Shown: positions 20,271-63,807 of the stretch, piece by piece
Numbering within the stretch: the stretch's first letter is position 1
Layout: every line of letters begins with the position of its first letter
From: Kondoa subrosea
Lineage: Eukaryota
DNA length: 64,000 bases
Assembly (NCBI GenBank): GCA_039545335.1
Contig: BCIN01000006.1
Coordinates: forward strand, 682,001-746,000
Direction of reading: 5' to 3'
Made by a program: the position numbers and the translations under genes
The notes under the pieces: model-generated
The model's database searches: none
Seen by the model: only the letters and a program-made list of their open reading frames with translations
What the model was told of the DNA's origin: nothing

Positions 20271-20283
20271 GTCCTCTATCCAA

Positions 20284-20807
20284 TCAATATACCACACAAC
20301 AGAAAAATATACAAGCCGCAACCAAAATGAACCAACATTGCTTCCTATACCATGCAGCAGAAGCCAGAGTCTTCTCCATCTCTTTCAACTCTTGAGAACC
20401 TTCGACAGAAGACGCGGAGAGTTGAGCTGCCAGACATCGACAGTCTATGATGGATTTGCTGTATAGAAGGAGGTTGAGTAGCAGACAATCAATGACGATC
20501 TGCTTGGAGAAAGTGGCTTCCTCTTTCGTTGCAAGATGGTTGAAAAGGAAGAGCTGAAAGACTTGTAGGAAAATAATGATATTATTCTGCAAAAAGTATT
20601 GTTGTTCAGGTGAATATTGCTCAATGACTAATGAACTTACCAGCTTGTTTTCTCTTTCTATTCCTCTTTGTAAGACATCTATCGCAGAGCTTTCCTCGGA
20701 TTCGATGTTGACCAAACTATCACCAAAATCAGAGACCATTTGCATGAACTGAGAATTAACACTTACGATTGCTTTTCACATTGATCTTTTCCCTCCATTG
20801 TACTCAT
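20284..20807 (-). CDS. Small orphan membrane protein, copy A (~140 aa)
   Basis: Two introns; MSTMEGKDQCEKQSLVNIES...IIIFLQVFQLFLF...WFILVAACIFFCCVVY; reading frame conserved in copy B. Confidence 0.7.
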
Positions 20808-21081
20808 ACTTTGAAGACAAGATATGTCTGGGCAGCAAGAGTTCAAGAGATTGCTGGCAGGAGAGCTTATCAGTGAAGATTGCAACGAGAATTGAGCCAA
20901 AGCAAGACACAAGGTAGTAGAGCTTATATACGTTGCATGAAACGATAGCTTTGTTTGGACTGCATTATTATTCTTTCTGTTTTGTTCAAGAATGTGATCC
21001 GCTCAGCTGGAATGGAAACTTGACCGACGATCGATCGCATGACGGATTGATTGTGACGCATAACATTGCTGGCAGCGTATG

Positions 21082-22731
21082 CTATTTGATACTTCTAGAT
21101 TCGTGATTCTGCGGAGAAGAGTGATTATGCATGGTTCCTTGTTGTTTCCGATGCTGAGCTCTTTGTTTCCCTCGATGTGCTCGGCTGCGCTCGTGTTCGC
21201 TTCGAAGTGATTCTTGGACCATGAAAGGACGAACAGCTGATTCACTACATATTGGACAAATGTATTTTTGCAGATCTTTCGCCTCGAATGTGCTAGCACG
21301 AAGTGTAAGCTTCAAAACCCAGATCAGACTTTATCAACTCACTCAGTCAGTAGAGTGGAAGCTGCTTCGCAAATCAAAAGCGGATCAGGCATGAGCTGCT
21401 TCCCTTTCCAGTCTATAACACACCAGTAACAGATCAATGCATGTCGCGCTTCGTTACAAATACTGACTGAGCGTGATCTGTTTCGCTCTTTCTTCTACTT
21501 CTTGTGCCCAGTCCTCTAATTTGCTTGCGTCCAGAACATAAAGGGAGACACTTTCATCTTTCCTTGCTTTGTCTGTGAACTTTGTGCGGAACCAAGCGAC
21601 CTGTCTTTTAGCATATTGCTTTGTATGTAGCTTCATGAGATCTGTCGCTGCTTTGTGCGATATATGGCCTTGCAAGTGCTCGACGAAAGGTTTGTAGCCG
21701 ATTGATTGCTTGATCCCACGCGAGAAGTCGATCTCGCCCTCTTGAATAGAGTAGAGTTGCTTGATCTCATCCAGAAGTCCTTCCTAAATTATTTCTTCAG
21801 CTTGCCTCTTGTACGAAATAAGCCAGCTCACCTCGAGCATCTTATCCACTCTGGCATCCAATCTCTTCTCCAAAGCTTCTCGCTCAGCATAAAGCCAATA
21901 GACCAATACTCTCCATCTGCAACCTTCTTCTTCTTCTTGCTCTTCAAGATCCTTTCCATGGGTTTGCAAATATATTTCCAAATGTCTTCTCACTTTTCGA
22001 ATATCTCGCCAATGCCATTTCGCAGCATCCATCTCGCTCAAAGTGTTGAAAATACTCCATAATCCCCATGCTAGACGTTCTGCATCTCTGTATTGCTCTG
22101 GAAGTAGGTCCACTGGGAAAAGAGGTGGAAATTGATTAGGTGAATTCACCGAAGGTAGAGTTGGAAGAAGATGAACAAGAGCTTGATCTACAGATGATAA
22201 AGTAGAGACTTGTTTCGAGACAGAGTCAGAGTACGTAATGGCTTCTGCTGAGTCAGACGAAGATGTAGAAGGAAACAGAAGATGCTGAGTATAATAGGCT
22301 GTGCCGCCTACGAGTATCGGCGTCTGGTTCATAGCATGTAGTTCATCTATCTAGTGATATTGAGAAGCCGAAACAGACAAGACAGATCGCAAGCTGACTT
22401 CTTTCATTGCATCTCGCTTGAAATCCAAGACCTGATACTCTTCGCTTGGATCTAAGAAAGACATCAATCGATGAGGAATCCCTTTCTTCTCCTCTTCAGT
22501 CACTTTGGCAGTCAAAATAGGCAAAGCCCTATAAACTTGCATAGAATCGGTGTTGATGACTTCAGATTTGGATGATCCGCCCAAAGCATGAGCCAGAGAG
22601 ATGGCCAGATTCGATTTCCCTACTCCTGTTGTACCTAGAATGACAATCACATCTTGCTTAGAAGCAGGTTCAGTAGACATGTTGGTCGAAAGGCAGCGTC
22701 GAAGGGGAATCAAAGTCTGGTATAATCGCAT
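21082..22731 (-). CDS. MOD5: tRNA dimethylallyltransferase (tRNA-IPT, MiaA/Mod5), copy A
   Basis: GTTGVGKS P-loop, INTDSMQVY, PILVGGTAYY, RLDARVDKM, QSIGYKPF, TKQYAKRQ, C-terminal Zn finger CPIC...HERSRAH; 4 canonical introns. Confidence 0.95.
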
Positions 22732-23022
22732 GCCATTGCGCTTAATCCACACTTGTGCTGGTATCTAGCAAGCCTTGGTATCTGTGGATCGAAGTAGCTA
22801 CTAGTAACTTCGCTGGTGAGGATTAAGCTGACGAATTATATGCATTAAGATGTGTCAAAGATGATTGGAAAGCAGAGAGCAGGTCAAGTCGATGAGGTGT
22901 GCGATTCTTGAATCCCGCCTAAGTTATCTTGTAGATAGCGGAGTCGATTTTTGCAATTTCATAAGTTCATAAGATGTGTTACGAAGTTTCAAAACACAAG
23001 CTATTACAAGCTACTCATAAGG

Positions 23023-51464: not shown

Positions 51465-51747
51465 AGCTGTCTATTGATTCATTGGATTTCATGCTATTGC
51501 CAAGTTTCGCTTCACCTCTACTCCTCTCGTCGACACCGGTTGCTAGCGGACAACAATGCGAAATACACTCTAGGGACTTGTTCTCTTGTTCTTGAATTGA
51601 GGCTTCTTCTCGAAATCATGCCCAACTACCTTCCAAATTGACCTTATCCCACTCTTGACCCAAAACGTCGGACTGAAAAGAGCCAAGTCAGCTGAACAAT
51701 ACCAGTGACTGTTAGATATCATCACAAGTGATAAGCCCTCCAATGGC

Positions 51748-53406
51748 ATGCGATTATACCAGACTTTGATTCCCCTTCGACGCTGCCTTTCGACCAAAAT
51801 GTCTATTAAACATGCTTGTAAGCAAGATGTGATTGTCATTCTGGGTACAACAGGAGTAGGGAAATCGAACCTGGCCATCTCTCTGGCTTATGCTTTGGGC
51901 GGATCATCCAAATCTGAAGTCATCAATACCGATTCTATGCAAGTTTATAGGGCTTTGCCTATTTTGACTGCCAAAGTGACTGAAGAGGAGAAGAAAGGGA
52001 TCCCGCATCGATTGATGTCTTTCATAGACCCAGGCGAAGAGTACCAGGTCTTGGATTTCAAGCGAGATGCAACGAGAGAAGTCAGCTTACTATCTGTCTT
52101 ATCTGCTTTGGCATCTCAATATCACTAGATAGATGAATTGCATTCTGTGAACAAGACGCCGATTCTGGTAGGCGGAACAGCCTATTATACTCAGCATCTT
52201 CTGTTTCCTTCTACATCTTCCTCCGACTCAACAGAAGCCATCACATACTCTGACTCTGTCTTGAAACAAGTCTCTAACTTGTCTTTGGTAGATCAAGCTC
52301 TTGTTCATCTTCTTCCAACTTTACCTTCCTTGAATTCACCTAATCAATTTCCACCTCTTTTCCCAGTGGACCTACTTCCGGAGCAATACAGAGATCCAGA
52401 ACGTCTAGCATGGGGATTATGGAGCATCTTCAACACTTTGGGCGAGAAGGATGCTGCGAAATGGCATTGGCGAGATATTCGAAAAGTGAGAAGACATTTG
52501 GAAATCTATTTGCAAACCCATGGAAAGGATCTTCAAGAGCAAGAAGAAGAAGAAAAAGGTTGTAGATGGAGAGTACTGGTTTATTGGCTTTATGCTGAGC
52601 GAGAAGCTTTGGAGAAGAGATTGGATGCTAGAGTGGATAAGATGCTTGAGGTGAGCTGGTTTACTTTGTATAAGCTGCAAGCTGAAGAAATAATGTAGGA
52701 AGGAATTCTGGATGAGATCAAGCAACTCTACTCTATTCAAGAGGGCGAGATCGACTTCTCACGTGGAATCAACCAATCAATCGGCTACAAACCTTTCGTC
52801 GAGCACTTGCAAGGCCATATATCGCACAAAGCAGCGACAGATCTCATGAAGCTACATACAGAGCAATATGCTAAAAGACAGGTCGCTTGGTTCCGCACAA
52901 AGTTCACAGACAAAGCACGGAAAGACGAAAGTGTCTCTCTTTATGTTCTGGACGCAAGCCACTTAGAGGACTGGTCACAAGAAGTAGAAGAAAGGGCGAA
53001 AGAGATCACGCTCAGTCAGTATCATCTTTGTGACGAAGCGCGATATGCATTAATGTGTCAATTGATTTGTTATAGACTGGAAAGGAAAGCAGCACATGCC
53101 TGATCCACTCTTGGTGTGCGAAGCAGCTTCTACTCTTCTTACTGAGTGAGTTCACAAAGTCTGACCTGGATTCTCGAGCTTACACTTCATGCTAGCACAT
53201 TCGAAGCCAAAGATCTGCAAAAATACATCTGTCCAATATGTAGTGAATCAGCTGATCGTCCTTTTATGGTCCAAGAATCTCTTCGAAGTGAACACGAGCG
53301 CAGCCGAGCACATCGAGGTAAACAAAGAGCTCAGAATCGCAAACAACAAGGAACGATGCATAATCACTCTGCTCAGCAGGATCACGCATTCAGAAGAATC
53401 AAATAG
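51748..53406 (+). CDS. MOD5: tRNA dimethylallyltransferase (tRNA-IPT, MiaA/Mod5), copy B
   Basis: Same motifs and same four intron positions as copy A; frame is intact after splicing. Confidence 0.95.
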
Positions 53407-53682
53407 CATACGTTGCCAGCAATTTTATGCGTCACAAACAATTCGTCATGCGCTCGATCGTCGGTCAAGTTTCCATTCCATCTGAGCGGATCACATTCTT
53501 GAGAAAAACAGCAAAGAACAACAATGCAGTCCAAACAAAGCTATCCTTTCATGCAACGTATATAAGCTTTACTACCTTGTGTCTTGCTTCTGGCTCAATT
53601 CTCGTTGCAACCTTCGCCGATAAGCTCTGCTACCAGCAATCTCTCAAACTCTTGCTGCCCAGACATATCTTATCTTCACAGC

Positions 53683-54204
53683 ATGAGTTCAATGAAGGAT
53701 AATGAACAAGGTGAAAAGCAATCGTGAGTAATATTCCCAGTACAGGTAAACCGTGTCTGATTTCGGTGATAGTTTGGTCACCATCGAATACGAGGAAAGC
53801 TCTGCGATAGATGTTTTACAGAGAGGAACAGAAAGAGAGAATAAGCTGGTAAGCTCTGCGGCGATTGTGCCAACATCCGATTCGCTGATGAACAATTACA
53901 GAATAGTATTATCATCTTTCTACAAGTCTTTCAGCTCTTTCTTTTCAACCATCTGACAACGAAAGAAGAAGCCACCTTCTCCAAGCAGATCGTCATCGAT
54001 TGTCTGCTACTCAACCTCCTTCTATACAGCAAGTCTATCATAGATTGTCGGTGCTTGGCAGCTCAACTCTCGGCGTCTTCTGTCGAAGATGCTCAAGAGT
54101 TGGACGAGATGGAGAAGATTCTGGCTTCTGTTGCATGGCACAGAAAGCAATGCTGGTTCATCATGGTCGTAGCCTGTACATTTTTCTTTTGTGCCGTGTA
54201 TTGA
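53683..54204 (+). CDS. Small orphan membrane protein, copy B
   Basis: MSSMKDNEQGEKQSLVTIEY...IIIFLQVFQLFLF...WFIMVVACTFFFCAVY; same intron positions as copy A. Confidence 0.7.
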
Positions 54205-54337
54205 CTGGATGAGGGATTGTAGAGTGCACTATAGATGGTTTGTGCTTTTCCTGTAAATATTTCTTTAGCTTCAAGCTTGCATTGCATTTTCGGTTCTGCT
54301 TACTAATATCTCTTGATCGGTTTCGACGAAGCACATC

Positions 54338-59970: not shown

Positions 59971-62900
59971 TTATAGGACTGTATCTTTCGCATGCTTCAG
60001 CGCATCCAACAACCACTTTTGAGCTACGCCGAGCTCAACGTTCGGTTCAACATCTGGAAGAAAAGTTTAGTCTTGCTTCCCCTTGGCGATCGAAGGATGC
60101 ATACCTGGTCGATGTTTGCTTGAAGCCATCTTCAGAGGATGATAGACGAACATGTTCGAATTCAGGTGTTGAGCTAATGAAAGCGGCACTTTCAGTGTTC
60201 GGTACTTCGGTATCTCCTGCTGATCGACTCACCGAAGTTCAGTCGATCATCAAACCAAGTCCATGCTATGCCACTTTGCGGCAGGCTGTTATCCACTCGT
60301 TCGGCGGGCATAGCATTGACGATCGTAGCCATAGCGACTTCTAGCCAAACTCCGTTCTGACCGAAGATGTCCAGTAAGCCAAAGAATTCTTCGGCAAATC
60401 GACCTGGAACTTGGAAGAAATCCCCTTGGTTTACCCAAAGTTCGTTCGTCATTCGTCCTGGTTGCTGCGCGTTGATCTGATCGATTGCTTCGATGGCCTG
60501 CTTGGAGGCAGCCCAGCTATAAGACATCATTAGATCTTGTAATCTCACGTAAAGACACTTCAGCTCACGTATGCCACCACGGCCATCTGTTGACAGTAAG
60601 CTTAGTATAGCCTCAATGAAAGGCAGACGCTAACATACATGGCAGAAAGCGCACCAAAATCTGTTTCAGGCGTATATGTAACATGATTCAGGTTTTCTTG
60701 CCATTTCGGGTGCCAAATCTTATCTTTATCGAGCTTTTGCATTGCGAATGGATCAAAGACGACGTCCTAATGATATTATAAGTCTTGTTTTCGCTGGACG
60801 AGAACAGTTCAGGCAGCTCACGTCGTTTGTGAATAAATAAGAAGCATAGCCTGGGTGCTCCTTGTATGCCATTACAGCAGCTCTGTAGCTTGTTCCGCCT
60901 CCAGCTCCAGATGCCCAGTTGTCGAAAGCTGTGACTTTGATATCGCCAACCTCATATGCTTCCGGACCATAGAAGACAATCTATAGAGCGCAATATGAAA
61001 ACACAAATGCGGAAGATTAATACTGAACTCACATTTGGGTAAAAGCGAGAATACAGATTTAGGAAAGGTTGAATAGCTCCATAGTGGGCGAAATTGAATT
61101 GTACAATCAATAGAGTATCGGTGAAATATGGGAAAGCTGTATCCGAAGCAGCTTCTTGCCATTCTTGACCTATTCGATGATAATCAGGCGCTTTCAGTTC
61201 TGCTGCTGCTGCAGCTGCGTCTAAGTCGAAGATTTGTAGTTCGGGCCATTGATAATTGAGTTTCCGTAGATCACTGATCCAAGCTTCCATAAGATCGAGA
61301 TCACTTTGTCCAATGAATTCAGCGGCGACCATAGATCTGCCCAGATCGATAATGCGATAGTCGAGACGAGTTGCGGTGCTGGTCCATGTCTGCAAGAAAG
61401 TCACGAACTTGCCGACGTGGATATAGAGTTCCAATTCGCTTTCCATATCCGAGATGTAATCGTGTGCGTTTCTGACTTGATCGACAGTCTTTCTCGAGAG
61501 GTCAGAACATTCATTATTAGCGAAGGGAGTCAATCTCACTGGAGGTCCGAATGCCAGAGTCGCCCCAATGTCCCAAAGCAACCGCTGAGACCAATATCCT
61601 ATTGGCAGAAAAAGAATTCAGACTGATTACTTCATGCCAGTAGTGGACATTACCTCTCATGATATCAGTAGCTCGGAAGGTAACGCTAAAGTGATAGTCA
61701 GCGAATCAAAACTTGAAGGTGAAGAAGGCAATTGTACCTAATTGGAAGAAGCAGACCCCAAAACGCATCCTTATGCCATAATGTGTTTTGACTGTTGAAC
61801 GGTGAAGCAATACCGCGAGCGACTACATCAGAAAGATGATCAGTAATGATCCAAACCGTGCAAAGAGGTAAAAGATTGACGTTTGATTGGACCAGCAGTC
61901 TTATCGAAATGTACCGTAGCAATGTCTTCAGGATTCGTCAAACGGAACTGCGAATATAGTTAGTACAGTCTCCGGGTAACAAATCGATCAAGTTCACGAT
62001 GGCATCAACATCTGGATCTAGGTCTGCCAAACCTTGCAGGACGAGAGCCCGTCCTTGTAATTCTGTTGGCATCATATTCGTCGCGGCTATCGAGTAATTC
62101 TTGTTGGAGTTGATCTGCTCAAGTGGATAACCTCTTGGCCAGATATCAGAGCGTCCGAAATGCTTGTAAGGATTGATAGCAGTATCTTCGCGCATGTGAG
62201 GGTTGAAGACAGTCTGGTAAAGGGGATCATCTGGGTCGAGAACACGAATTCCTGTCTTGACATCATTGATATCGTTGTCATCGTCCGTATCGAAGATAGT
62301 TTCAGCACCCAGAGCAATAGCATACAGGTAACCGAGATTCTTGCGAGTGTAAGCTTTGTAAGGAATGTGACGCGGAGAGTTGAAAGGTAGGCGATATTGA
62401 TCTTCGACTGACAAGAAGTAGCATGCTCCATCGTGCCAAGTCGTAGGTGTTTTAGTATCGGCTACAACTACAACATTCTGATAAAAGACGGTCAGAGAAT
62501 GTTGTGCTTGCCTGAATCCAACTTACCCAATCTTCGAGAGCACAATAGTGGTCCATCACATCGGTAGGCAAAGCAATTGATGTGACAATAACCCATTGCT
62601 TGTTGCCTCTTGTGTCAATTGTGGAGAAATCTAAAGTCGGCTTTGGACCAAAAGCAATGGAAACAAGGAGAAGGAAAGCGTAAAGGGCACCAGATAGCCA
62701 AAGACTTCGATTAGAGGCTGGCTGCTTCTCTGCTTCTTGTCGGAAGAAAGGATTGGCCCGTTCGTTTGGAGGTGACAGAAGGAAAGATTCAGCCTCAAGG
62801 GATTTGCGTTCGTCGTCATAATTGAAGGTCTTGGGTTCTGCAAAACGGGTAGCAACTTCAGGTGTTCCGAAAGGTAGTGTGGCTTCGGCTCTTTCTTCGC

Positions 62901-63807
62901 GAATCGAGGCGAAAGGAACAACGAAAGAAATGAGGGCCACTGCTACTAATTGAAGACTGTCATTGGCCAATCTTGTGGAACCTGCAGCCTTCATCTGGTC
63001 CTGCATGAGAGCAAAGAGACTGCACGAATTCAATACGGGAAAACACCACATGAAGAAGTCTTTTACCTGATCAATGCCAGATTGACGTTCCAGCCAACAA
63101 ATGCAGACACTCTGTGTGAGCCGAAGACAGTAGCTATACCGATAATGATGATAATAAAGCACTGCAGCAGGAATCAGCAAGAGGACCTAAATTTGCATAT
63201 TTCAACTGACCTGTAAAACCCAACTTGATTGCTGCCAAAGTATGATGTCTGGAAAGATTGGGACTAGACCAATTGGAAGAGGGATAGCTGGATTGCTGAA
63301 GACGCGCAGGGGCAAAAGAGTGACGAATAGAATGCCTGAGAGATTAGCAATAGCTGTTGACGATGTTGCGAGGGTATTCTTCAGTGATGGTGTTGCGCTT
63401 GCTCGTGCGTTGTCTAGAGCTGAGAGTTGAGCTACAGCAAGTGCTGCCAGAGGTAGATGTGTGAGAAAGATGCTTGCTGTGAGCAGATTCTTCACATCTG
63501 TTTGATAAGCCAAAAGTAGCGCCAGCGCCATTTCCAGTATGCGTAGTGGTGTGATATGAGCGAGCGCCAGCGCTCTTTTGCCAGAATACTTGCGCACCAG
63601 CAGTCCTAGAGTTGTAAGGAAAACCAGTAGAGATGGATCAATCCAGACGAGATATCTCATTGCCAATTGCAGGACAACAAGAGAGGCAAAAGGATAGACA
63701 GCCAAACCAGCGGAGGAGAGCTGAAATGACGGACGCATTCCACAGCACGCGCCTAAACATCCTGCAGCTATGAGCGATCCAGCAAGTGCAGCAAGTGAAC
63801 TGTCCAT
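59971..63807 (-). CDS. STELLO/DUF288 glycosyltransferase-like protein with an N-terminal polytopic membrane module
   Basis: WVIVTSI..PT, VVVADTKTP, YTRKNLGYLYAI..GA..IFDTDDDN, IWPRGYPL, QGLADLDPDVDAI, PFNSQNTLW..AFWGLLLP, TDIMRGYWSQRLLWDIG, QVRNAHDY; second domain YLFTNDDV...HPLK. Confidence 0.88.

Follow-up and report, generated by a model that had tools for sequence, protein, structure and literature searches.

A STELLO-type glycosyltransferase with two catalytic domains joined to a multi-pass membrane module in Kondoa subrosea

The window, i.e. the whole stretch of 64,000 nucleotides of Kondoa subrosea DNA analysed here, carries on its minus strand a gene of the STELLO family, which is single-copy, no second STELLO match having been found in its own genome (Table 1). 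A single frame running from the start ATG at 63807 to the stop at 59971 spans all parts of the 1034-aa protein, and all 14 introns are GT-AG, with lengths of 47-59 nt. The protein of a relative (P0121, 1034 aa) can be aligned with the window protein from end to end, with 811/1036 identical positions; its coding frame is unbroken on a contig of 3187 nt and stays in frame through all 14 intron positions of the window gene. None of the neighbours to which Pfam gave a name (89 long window ORFs scanned; upstream stretch inspected by eye only) is a glycan gene.

Table 1. Coordinates of the STELLO gene and of the parts of its protein; positions are those of the window.
Feature	Position	Strand	Description	Basis
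Whole gene	59971..63807	minus	1034 aa, 15 exons, 14 introns	open spliced frame
Exons	63807-63211, 63161-63067, 63019-62527, 62477-61998, 61947-61881, 61822-61738, 61685-61654, 61598-61540, 61488-61033, 60980-60822, 60766-60639, 60586-60569, 60516-60233, 60173-60105, 60053-59971	minus		
Intron 1	63162..63210	minus	49 nt, phase 0	GT..CAG, CTGAT branch candidate; absent from P0121
Intron 2	63020..63066	minus	47 nt	P0121 fit and sequence
N-terminal membrane module, aa 1-272	62896..63807	minus	9-10 hydrophobic segments	Kyte-Doolittle
Charged linker, aa 273-336	62704..62895	minus	hydrophilic; predicted cytosolic	
Type II membrane anchor, aa 337-355	62647..62703	minus		hydropathy
GT75-like domain (GT1), ~aa 370-716	61249..62604	minus		MtdL sequence and fold matches
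Second GT-A domain (GT2), ~aa 755-1034	59974..61134	minus	GT31-like fold	fold matches and conservation

The first-pass annotation had taken ATG 63807 as the start of a hydrophobic N-terminal region interrupted by two introns, at 63162-63210 and 63067-63110. The start is borne out by the 1034-aa spliced frame, and so is the first intron, which is absent from the P0121 frame; in a further protein, P0136, the reading enters an intron at this very point. The second intron had to be replaced by 63066-63020, because P0121 matches this model better (global score 4322 vs 4284; module identity 172/272 vs 166/272); the 63110-63067 intron keeps the frame, but would cut out exon sequence matched by P0121. 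A third option, 63066-63001, is out of frame. Retention of intron 2 brings in a TAA at 63065-63063, which ends translation after 231 aa; two separate genes, namely a 231-aa membrane protein ending at TAA 63063 and a STELLO gene starting from a downstream ATG, would agree with the weak branch site of this intron and with the close gene packing here (the next ATG lies 209 nt past the stop), but the junction is crossed by one unbroken frame in P0121, the protein of Mixia is annotated as a single 1148-aa chain and the gap between both genes would be ~60 nt at most, so that this reading is hardly tenable and already largely refuted. The claim of one gene, with the membrane region in frame with linker, single TM and catalytic domains, is thus upheld by both the spliced frame and the unbroken P0121, and, as far as sequence can tell, the fusion of a multi-pass membrane module to STELLO is real.

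Downstream of the module, the linker carries 7 K/R within its first and last 20 residues (its equivalent in Mixia is Ser-rich) and leads to an anchor that lies where plant STL1 has its only one (PMC4906169); being preceded by 9-10 more segments, this anchor breaks the single-anchor rule of STELLO. Since the last TM is type II, we infer from the anchor, the basic linker and plant STL1 that both catalytic domains are luminal, as in the plant protein. The motifs previously quoted as a complete DUF288 domain (DTDDDN, PRGYP, QGLADLDPDVD and FNSQNT) are all present, within the GT75-related region; the DUF288 label does not suit them, since PF03385, which scores above its gathering cut-off of 27.8 (54 bits in one exon, 73.4 bits in P0121), covers only P0121 608-720. 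Two GT-A domains are indeed found, as the fold matches of GT1 and GT2 indicate, and the second DD domain is where it had been reported; it is not an extra feature, being standard in STELLO proteins of Mortierellales, nematodes and plants. In particular, the GT1+GT2 layout is common, by alignment, to the Mortierellales and nematode members, and plant STELLO has DD591-592 in its second domain (PMC4906169). The Arabidopsis proteins STELLO1/2 (At2g41770, At3g57420), which affect cellulose synthase assembly (PMC4906169), share with the window protein the type II anchor, the GT75-related region with DDD and DVD, the second DD domain and PF03385, but are single-pass and devoid of the N-terminal multi-pass module.

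The join of a multi-pass module with STELLO is a real and rare one, in line with the earlier claim of rarity: at least three upstream TMs occur in 5/134 STELLO proteins examined, and the module is absent from 25 Mortierellales proteins and from one Gonapodya protein. The Mixia osmundae protein (P0004; L969DRAFT_87927, XP_014567297.1), a database entry without a functional name, has the same layout as the window protein (multi-TM N-terminus, linker, anchor, GT1, GT2), but is longer (1148 aa). On the GT1 tree the window protein, P0121, P0002 and Mixia form a clade (support 0.993), with Mixia as sister, within a fungal group of single-anchor members. The pairwise similarity between the module and the Mixia N-terminus is not significant (24/500 local shuffles; global z of 2.3-2.9 with full shuffles and 0.5-1.1 with block shuffles), and their common origin therefore rests on position and tree. 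P0136 and P0002 both come from 55,810-nt contigs and are presumed adjacent on account of this equal length; two metagenome scans recovered neither the P0121 nor the P0002 contig. Another protein, P0130, combines a TPT-like domain (TPT E 0.0056, below cut-off) with the same GT1+GT2; it is regarded as an independent fusion, because it is distant from the window protein on the GT1 tree. The literature searched (main texts, few subscription papers) contained no account of a fungal STELLO with several membrane passes. The broad architecture cannot be called undescribed, as the first-pass annotation had it, because a fusion of transporter and glycosyltransferase is already published, i.e. the GT92 protein ostta19g00600 of Ostreococcus tauri with its triose-phosphate-transporter domain (PMC5082852). 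Both ostta19g00600 and P0130 place a multi-pass domain ahead of a Golgi-type glycosyltransferase, as the window protein does; their transporter domain is recognisable, whereas the module of the window protein gave no transporter signal.

Nucleotide-sugar transporters of the SLC35/DMT type have ~10 TM helices in ~300 aa, with both termini cytosolic. The module was compared with them by Pfam (TPT, UAA, Nuc_sug_transp, EamA), remote profiles and DMT fold; its helix count and parity are ambiguous, 10 hydropathy segments standing against 9 long helices in a model of pLDDT 37. Its transporter-like character, proposed beforehand, holds for hydropathy; a DMT or nucleotide-sugar transporter identity received no Pfam, profile or fold signal in these low-power tests. 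At E values of 10 or less, Pfam matched no family to exon 1, P0121, the P0121 module alone or the Mixia N-terminus; a HMMER search of 1.84 billion representatives with the module retrieved one match only, P0136 (96/202 identical to window exon 1), and 8000 longer candidates contained no module homologues; the ESM Atlas yielded nothing usable for Mixia 1-350 and only scores <=0.77 for exon 1; in the PDB, sequence queries made from the module profile, P0135, a TPT exon of the own genome and a 30-aa piece of an exon brought up no transporter or other relevant chain. Two matches were set aside: one in the own genome (E 0.03), antisense to an unrelated gene, is due to chance, and one to an Xre/MbcA antitoxin (E 0.011) was taken as such. 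Home-made SLC35 profiles scored the module no higher than shuffles and missed the probable transporter control P0130 as well; an SLC35F-like control reached 22-37 bits in 3/4 of the SLC35 profiles. The AlphaFold model of the module, built from 4 sequences, gave no Foldseek match with E <1.4 and only generic helical bundles as VIA rows; because of its pLDDT of 37, both fold searches are uninformative.

Identity to P0121 amounts to 94% in the GT75-like domain, 67% in the linker and 63% in the module, and in a third species the module is 48% identical vs 78% for GT1. With module and linker diverging at the same pace, the module fits the picture of an eroded anchor or scaffold better than that of a working carrier; a transporter origin is proposed by analogy with P0130, with the GT92 fusion (PMC5082852) and with the NST-GT complexes that have been described (PMC9368800). 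Alternatively, the module may be an orphan multi-pass domain (a sensor, an acceptor-lipid binder or an oligomerisation unit) not descended from DMT proteins; every direct DMT test is blank, an internal 5+5 repeat is absent (as it is from the P0130 control), the AlphaFold model consists of 9 long helices and a Pro-rich coil, and nothing equivalent to the invariant VPIFPD..WQQ patch occurs in the transporters compared. These tests have, however, low power on this domain, and in other glycosyltransferase fusions the multi-pass partner is a transporter domain; we thus consider an orphan domain possible, though rather doubtful.

GT1 matches the GDP-fucose pyranose mutase MtdL in sequence (phmmer E 8e-17, profile E 4e-37; Foldseek E 4.5e-15), and shares its fold with the CAZy GT75 proteins MtdL (PDB 7XPU/7YUA; PMC9937993) and plant UAM/RGP (PDB 8CID), the VIA values being Z 31.2, rmsd 2.4 and 298 aligned residues for MtdL and Z 20.8 for rice UAM2; these proteins have neither membrane module nor second GT domain, whereas the window protein is membrane-anchored and GT2-fused. 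Of the MtdL site residues compared, 11/14 are kept, the nucleophile Arg among them. Equivalents of MtdL T13, D40, DDD109-111, N112, R159, D195, S228, Q229, R257, D260, R289 and H292 are present, the residues kept in GT1 being T377, D402, DDDN460-463, R510, D551, S588, Q589, R610, D613, R642 and H645 (R510, D551, D613, Q589 and R610 correspond to Arg159, Asp195, Asp260, Gln229 and Arg257). Four positions are changed: D87 to Tyr (Y438; Tyr in 54/56 sequences), the Mn-binding H287 to Gln (Q640; Gln in 55/56), and both R90 and N42 to Lys. DDD460-462 and DPDVD are invariant in 56/56 sequences, and in STL1 the DD and DVD aspartates of the GT75-related region are required (PMC4906169); the R159, D195 and DDD equivalents are likewise invariant (56/56), and a mutase would need them too. 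The base pocket is of the GDP type, the T13 equivalent being Thr in 43/43 sequences with a residue there; position 86 is a small residue, not Asp. Position 87 is Asp in MtdL, Ser in active RGPs and Tyr in the inactive AtRGP5, in which His287 is not conserved either, and the S91Y variant of AtRGP2 gives no furanose product (PMC9937993). Because of this AtRGP5-type Tyr and the missing metal His, GT1 is probably a GDP-sugar transferase and not a mutase.

As to the donor, the best NCBIfam match is to gmd or fcl in 18/80 bacterial STELLO loci (a raw count without background control); of 70 filtered ORFs from these neighbourhoods, none matches rmlB above cut-off or glf. For likeness to fcl-type genes, 21 of the ORFs had been picked. 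A Prymnesium protein has STELLO fused to a domain of the GDP-mannose-dehydratase family, and GMD- and GER-like genes are present in the own genome. The bacterial neighbours point to GDP-fucose as donor; in the literature surveyed, neither donor, product nor enzyme activity is given for any STELLO.

Whatever the module is, GT1 might instead act as a luminal pyranose-to-furanose mutase providing GDP-fucofuranose to GT2, which would then be a furanosyltransferase. MtdL is indeed the best fold match and most of its site is conserved, in bacteria, 23/80 loci encode GT1 and GT2 by separate genes, most of them adjacent, and 0 have them fused, and the furanosyltransferase GfsA is found among the GT2 fold matches (on a par with pyranosyltransferases at Z 10.6). 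The pattern of Tyr87 and Gln287 is, however, that of the inactive RGP5, the S91Y exchange removes the furanose product, STL1 R271A still complements in plants (PMC4906169), and no GT2 homologue lies nearby in 57/80 bacterial loci; a mutase is accordingly judged unlikely.

For GT2 (model residues 357-638) the best VIA rows are of the GT31/Fringe type, with rmsd 3.7-4.6 and Z 10.6-14.6: CHSY3-CHPF 14.6, B3GalT5 12.7, C1GalT1 12.6, Manic Fringe 11.3 and Aspergillus GfsA 10.6. With these GT-A enzymes GT2 shares the fold and apparently also an acidic metal motif and a C-terminal His, but identity is 8-13%, NDD stands for DxD, and a hydrophobic residue apparently occupies the place of the xED base Asp. 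The candidate site residues are NDD840-842, D922, E949, H996 and K999; the two Asp of the metal motif are found in 46/56 and 50/56 sequences, its first position being Asn/Ala, and the C-terminal His is kept in 46/56. In GT31 the (E/D)DV / xED motif carries the base Asp (PMC11538602, PMC7948508); in GT2 the Glu is present in 49/56 sequences and the next residue is mostly hydrophobic (an assignment from the order of motifs and not from superposition), so that the base Asp appears to be missing. In plant STL1 the DD of the second domain is dispensable (PMC4906169).

The joint reading that we propose, tentatively and at somewhat less than even probability, is that of one STELLO-family glycosyltransferase of the Golgi/ER membrane, whose GT75-like domain would bind a GDP-sugar and transfer it instead of ring-contracting it (GDP-L-fucose or a related GDP-6-deoxyhexose being the likeliest donor), while the GT31-like domain would add a second sugar or extend the chain, the product being a wall or secreted glycan containing fucose. 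The module would have been gained once, in the ancestor of Kondoa subrosea and Mixia, with a transporter gene of the SLC35/TPT type as its most likely source, and would have eroded since; it would now serve mainly as Golgi anchor or docking scaffold for working transporters, not as import route, the working transporters being encoded separately in the genome. Of the wall or capsule glycan role suggested at first, Golgi glycan synthesis is the part that stands, as likely. The fungal gene, the GT75/GT31 fold matches and the bacterial GDP-fucose neighbourhood together provide the STELLO family with a donor hypothesis that is concrete and can be tested, and an eroded module would show the decay of such fusions into anchors.

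The model put forward originally, in which the module, as a functional but highly divergent antiporter of nucleotide sugars, imports the donor and feeds it to the tethered GT domains, seems to us quite unlikely; slightly less likely still is its extended form, whereby such a transporter imports GDP-fucose for the GT75-type domain (with possible furanose conversion in the Golgi) and then the GT31-type transferase, making an undescribed fucose/fucofuranose glycan in a small basidiomycete lineage. If a unit of transporter and two glycosyltransferases were real, STELLO and nucleotide-sugar transporters would have fused independently at least twice, and a working module would be a natural test of direct transporter-to-enzyme hand-over. 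An antiporter would agree with the ~10 hydrophobic segments in ~270 aa, which is SLC35 size, with the retention of the whole module in three or four species (in three of which exon 1 has 75 invariant positions), and with P0130, both as an independent transporter-like fusion and as a recognisable control that the profiles missed likewise. GDP-sugar transporters are expected to have a Lys in helix 9; this position is Asn in the module (by-eye alignment). Also against an antiporter are the sequence and fold searches without signal, a module divergence equal to that of the linker, and the presence in the same genome of stand-alone TPT, SLC35A and UAA genes, of which the SLC35A/UAA genes carry no fused GT in the reading frames examined.

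Once 14 GT-AG introns (47–59 nt each) are removed, the STELLO-fusion gene is open from its ATG to its stop, a span of 1034 codons; its single chain carries, in this order, a multi-pass membrane module (aa 1–272), a linker, a type II anchor, a GT75-like domain (GT1) and a GT31-like GT-A domain (GT2). That module and STELLO domains lie in one frame, as the first-pass annotation had proposed, is confirmed by P0121, a 1034-aa protein of a relative belonging to the cluster of P0001, which was matched in a homologue search with exon 4; P0121 spans the full length of the model, has the same residue in 811 of 1036 alignment columns and reads in frame through all 14 intron positions. Since a 3105-nt frame in a contig of 3187 nt leaves no space for introns, we infer that the relative's gene is intronless or that the P0121 sequence derives from a processed transcript, one frame being present in both cases. 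The splicing of the window gene is predicted from this relative; of two in-frame options for intron 2, the alignment picks 63066–63020, and the first-pass placement, 63110–63067, was wrong, though it kept the frame.

Positions of the gene, its introns, its surroundings and related loci, with two further fusions
Feature	Position	Strand	Remark
STELLO-fusion gene	window 63807–59971	−	
Intron 2, picked by P0121 alignment	window 63066–63020	−	
Intron 2, first-pass placement	window 63110–63067	−	ruled out
Introns 4–8	window 61997–61489	−	
eIF4A-type DEAD-box helicase	window 59762 downward	−	begins 209 nt past STELLO stop
ORMDL-like gene	L013:951–2307	−	upstream; identified by eye
Inverted duplication, first copy	window 20273–22738	−	
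Inverted duplication, second copy	window 51741–54214	+	
TPT-family gene	L008:1477–1944	−	presumably GDP-fucose-transporter-like, by motif
TPT-family gene, similar	L009:1183–2022	+	presumably GDP-fucose-transporter-like, by motif
Separate GT1/GT2 genes (example)	L124:5920–8754		
Separate GT1/GT2 genes (example)	L128:4836–7873		
Separate GT1/GT2 genes (example)	L135:4880–6927		
P0040			STELLO + GT31 galactosyltransferase domain
P0078 (Owenia)			STELLO + patched/SSD membrane domain; may be gene-model artefact

Hydropathy places 10 segments within aa 5–270 and one at 337–355, and the positive-inside pattern fits 9 or 10 crossings of the module; identity to P0121 is 63% in the module, 67% in the linker, 62% in anchor and stem, 94% in GT1 and 77% in GT2. 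For the catalytic part of P0001, AlphaFold run on an alignment of 56 sequences gave a two-domain model (pLDDT 88). In fold searches, residues 1–316 resemble two GT75 enzymes, the GDP-fucose pyranose mutase MtdL (Z 31.2, rmsd 2.4, 298 aligned) and rice UAM2 (Z 20.8), and residues 357–638 resemble GT31/Fringe-type GT-A enzymes (CHSY3-CHPF, Z 14.6; B3GalT5, 12.7; C1GalT1, 12.6; Fringe, 11.3; GfsA, 10.6). Both glycosyltransferase domains announced by the first-pass annotation are therefore present, but the second DD domain is no extra: judged by sequence, the GT1 + GT2 layout is ordinary for STELLO, occurring also in Mortierellales and nematode members, and a second DD is described in Arabidopsis STL1 (PMC4906169). 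The multi-pass module is the only unusual part; the protein belongs to the STELLO family and departs from it in a single defining feature.

GT1 keeps the MtdL residues DDD109-111, N112, R159, D195, S228, Q229, R257, D260, R289 and H292; D87 is replaced by Tyr in 54 of 56 sequences, H287 by Gln in 55 of 56, and R90 by Lys. The invariant self-glycosylation Arg would suit a pyranose/furanose mutase, but such an activity is unlikely given the Tyr and Gln: mutase-dead AtRGP5 has Tyr at the D87 position and does not conserve His287, and AtRGP2 S91Y loses the furanose product (PMC9937993). In STL1, moreover, that Arg is dispensable, DD and DVD being required (PMC4906169); thus GT1 probably binds a nucleotide sugar in GT75 fashion and is not a classical mutase, and since it lacks two defining residues, the protein is not filed as a GT75 mutase. 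Its base pocket, with Thr at 13 (43/43 covering sequences) and a small residue at 86, reads as GDP-type. GMD- and GER-like genes are present in the genome, fucose synthesis is predicted in basidiomycetes except smuts (PMC8092308, PMC10481521), and Prymnesium P0133 is a STELLO protein fused with a GT61 and a GDP-mannose-dehydratase-family domain. GT2 retains NDD, one conserved Asp, Glu949 and the C-terminal His; the base Asp of the xED motif described for GT31 (PMC11538602, PMC7948508) appears to be missing, judged by motif order.

Among the best 80 of 349 confirmed prokaryote loci (L124–L203), GT1 occurs in all and is fused to GT2 in none; a separate GT2 homologue lies near it, mostly adjacent, in 23. 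Genes nearby encode, among others, Wzm/Wzt exporters, GT2-family enzymes and GT10/GT11 fucosyltransferases. Of 834 neighbour ORFs, 70 were chosen because they carried a motif or resembled two fcl-type genes; on this set, 18 of the 80 loci had gmd or fcl as best match, a count that the choice tilts towards fcl and that has no background control; neither rmlB above cut-off nor glf was found among these 70. Polysaccharide clusters carrying Wzm/Wzt and gmd/fcl account for many of the prokaryote loci, and in Babeliales up to three GT2-homologue copies lie near GT1.

The distribution of the fusion is narrow. In a survey of 134 proteins with a DDDN-type motif, at least three predicted upstream TMs were found in five (P0121, the Mixia osmundae homologue P0004, P0130, P0134 and an Owenia patched-domain fusion), and in none of the 25 Mortierellales proteins (several partial) or the Gonapodya protein among the matches listed; the window gene is the sole STELLO match in its genome. 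HMMER with a module profile over 1.84 billion representatives gave one match, P0136, an exon-1 orthologue which enters an intron at the matching place (intron 1); as its contig and that of the GT1 fragment P0002 are both 55,810 nt, they probably represent the same gene in a third species. In a midpoint-rooted FastTree phylogeny of GT1 from 51 selected sequences (303 columns), the window protein forms a clade with P0121, P0002 and Mixia (support 0.993), nested in a mostly fungal group (0.947) and far from P0130. The simplest reading is that the module was gained once, in the lineage of Mixia and Kondoa subrosea, and that P0130 is a separate fusion event; since module and Mixia N-terminus have no significant pairwise similarity, their common origin is argued from position and tree. 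P0002 crosses the positions of introns 4–8 in frame and enters an intron at that of intron 9; five introns were apparently lost or gained as a block between P0002 and the window gene.

The first-pass annotation suggested that the module may be a degenerate nucleotide-sugar transporter, an idea in keeping with its size, segment count and precedents, namely P0130, the O. tauri GT92 with a TPT domain, ostta19g00600 (PMC5082852), and Golgi NST-GT complexes (PMC9368800). These indirectly suggest transporter ancestry, which we consider somewhat the likelier origin. Against it, the module found no match in Pfam or ESM Atlas, no transporter in PDB sequences, and none with profiles from the organism's own TPT, SLC35A and UAA genes; global alignments gave no signal, and the structural comparison was blank. 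These tests are weak, because the query model reached a pLDDT of only 37 (4 sequences) and the control, the N-terminus of P0130, was missed by the TPT profile and the PDB search; an SLC35F-like control was recovered by profile. Some segments line up by eye with what we take to be TPT helix motifs, with no supporting score. That the module is still a working transporter is quite improbable: it diverges as fast as the linker (in the third species, 48% identity against 78% for GT1), and stand-alone transporters are encoded in the same genome. Having no transporter family match, the protein is not filed under SLC35. A PDB search did not support a GDP-fucose-transporter identity for the two TPT-family genes.

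On the preferred reading, the glycosyltransferase domains would be luminal, GT1 would transfer from a donor of GDP-fucose type, a second transfer by GT2 would follow, and the product may be a wall or secreted glycan; the module would be an eroded transporter serving as anchor or scaffold. No multi-pass fungal STELLO was described in the literature searched, and passages from a 2026 review (PMC13610622) and an expression screen (PMC5466300) add no STELLO activity. A better test case for channelling is offered by P0130 and P0134 (contigs 4.2–4.3 kb), 1052-aa proteins with an anchor, both STELLO domains and a TPT-like N-terminus, which in P0130 scores weakly, and under cut-off, against TPT in Pfam (E 0.0056).

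The named neighbours of the window gene are housekeeping genes, and the flanking genes (the upstream stretch read by eye) contain no glycan cluster. The inverted duplication (~2.47 kb, its copies sharing 90% identity and separated by 29 kb) has an IPP-transferase gene (PF01715, tRNA dimethylallyltransferase-type) in both copies.
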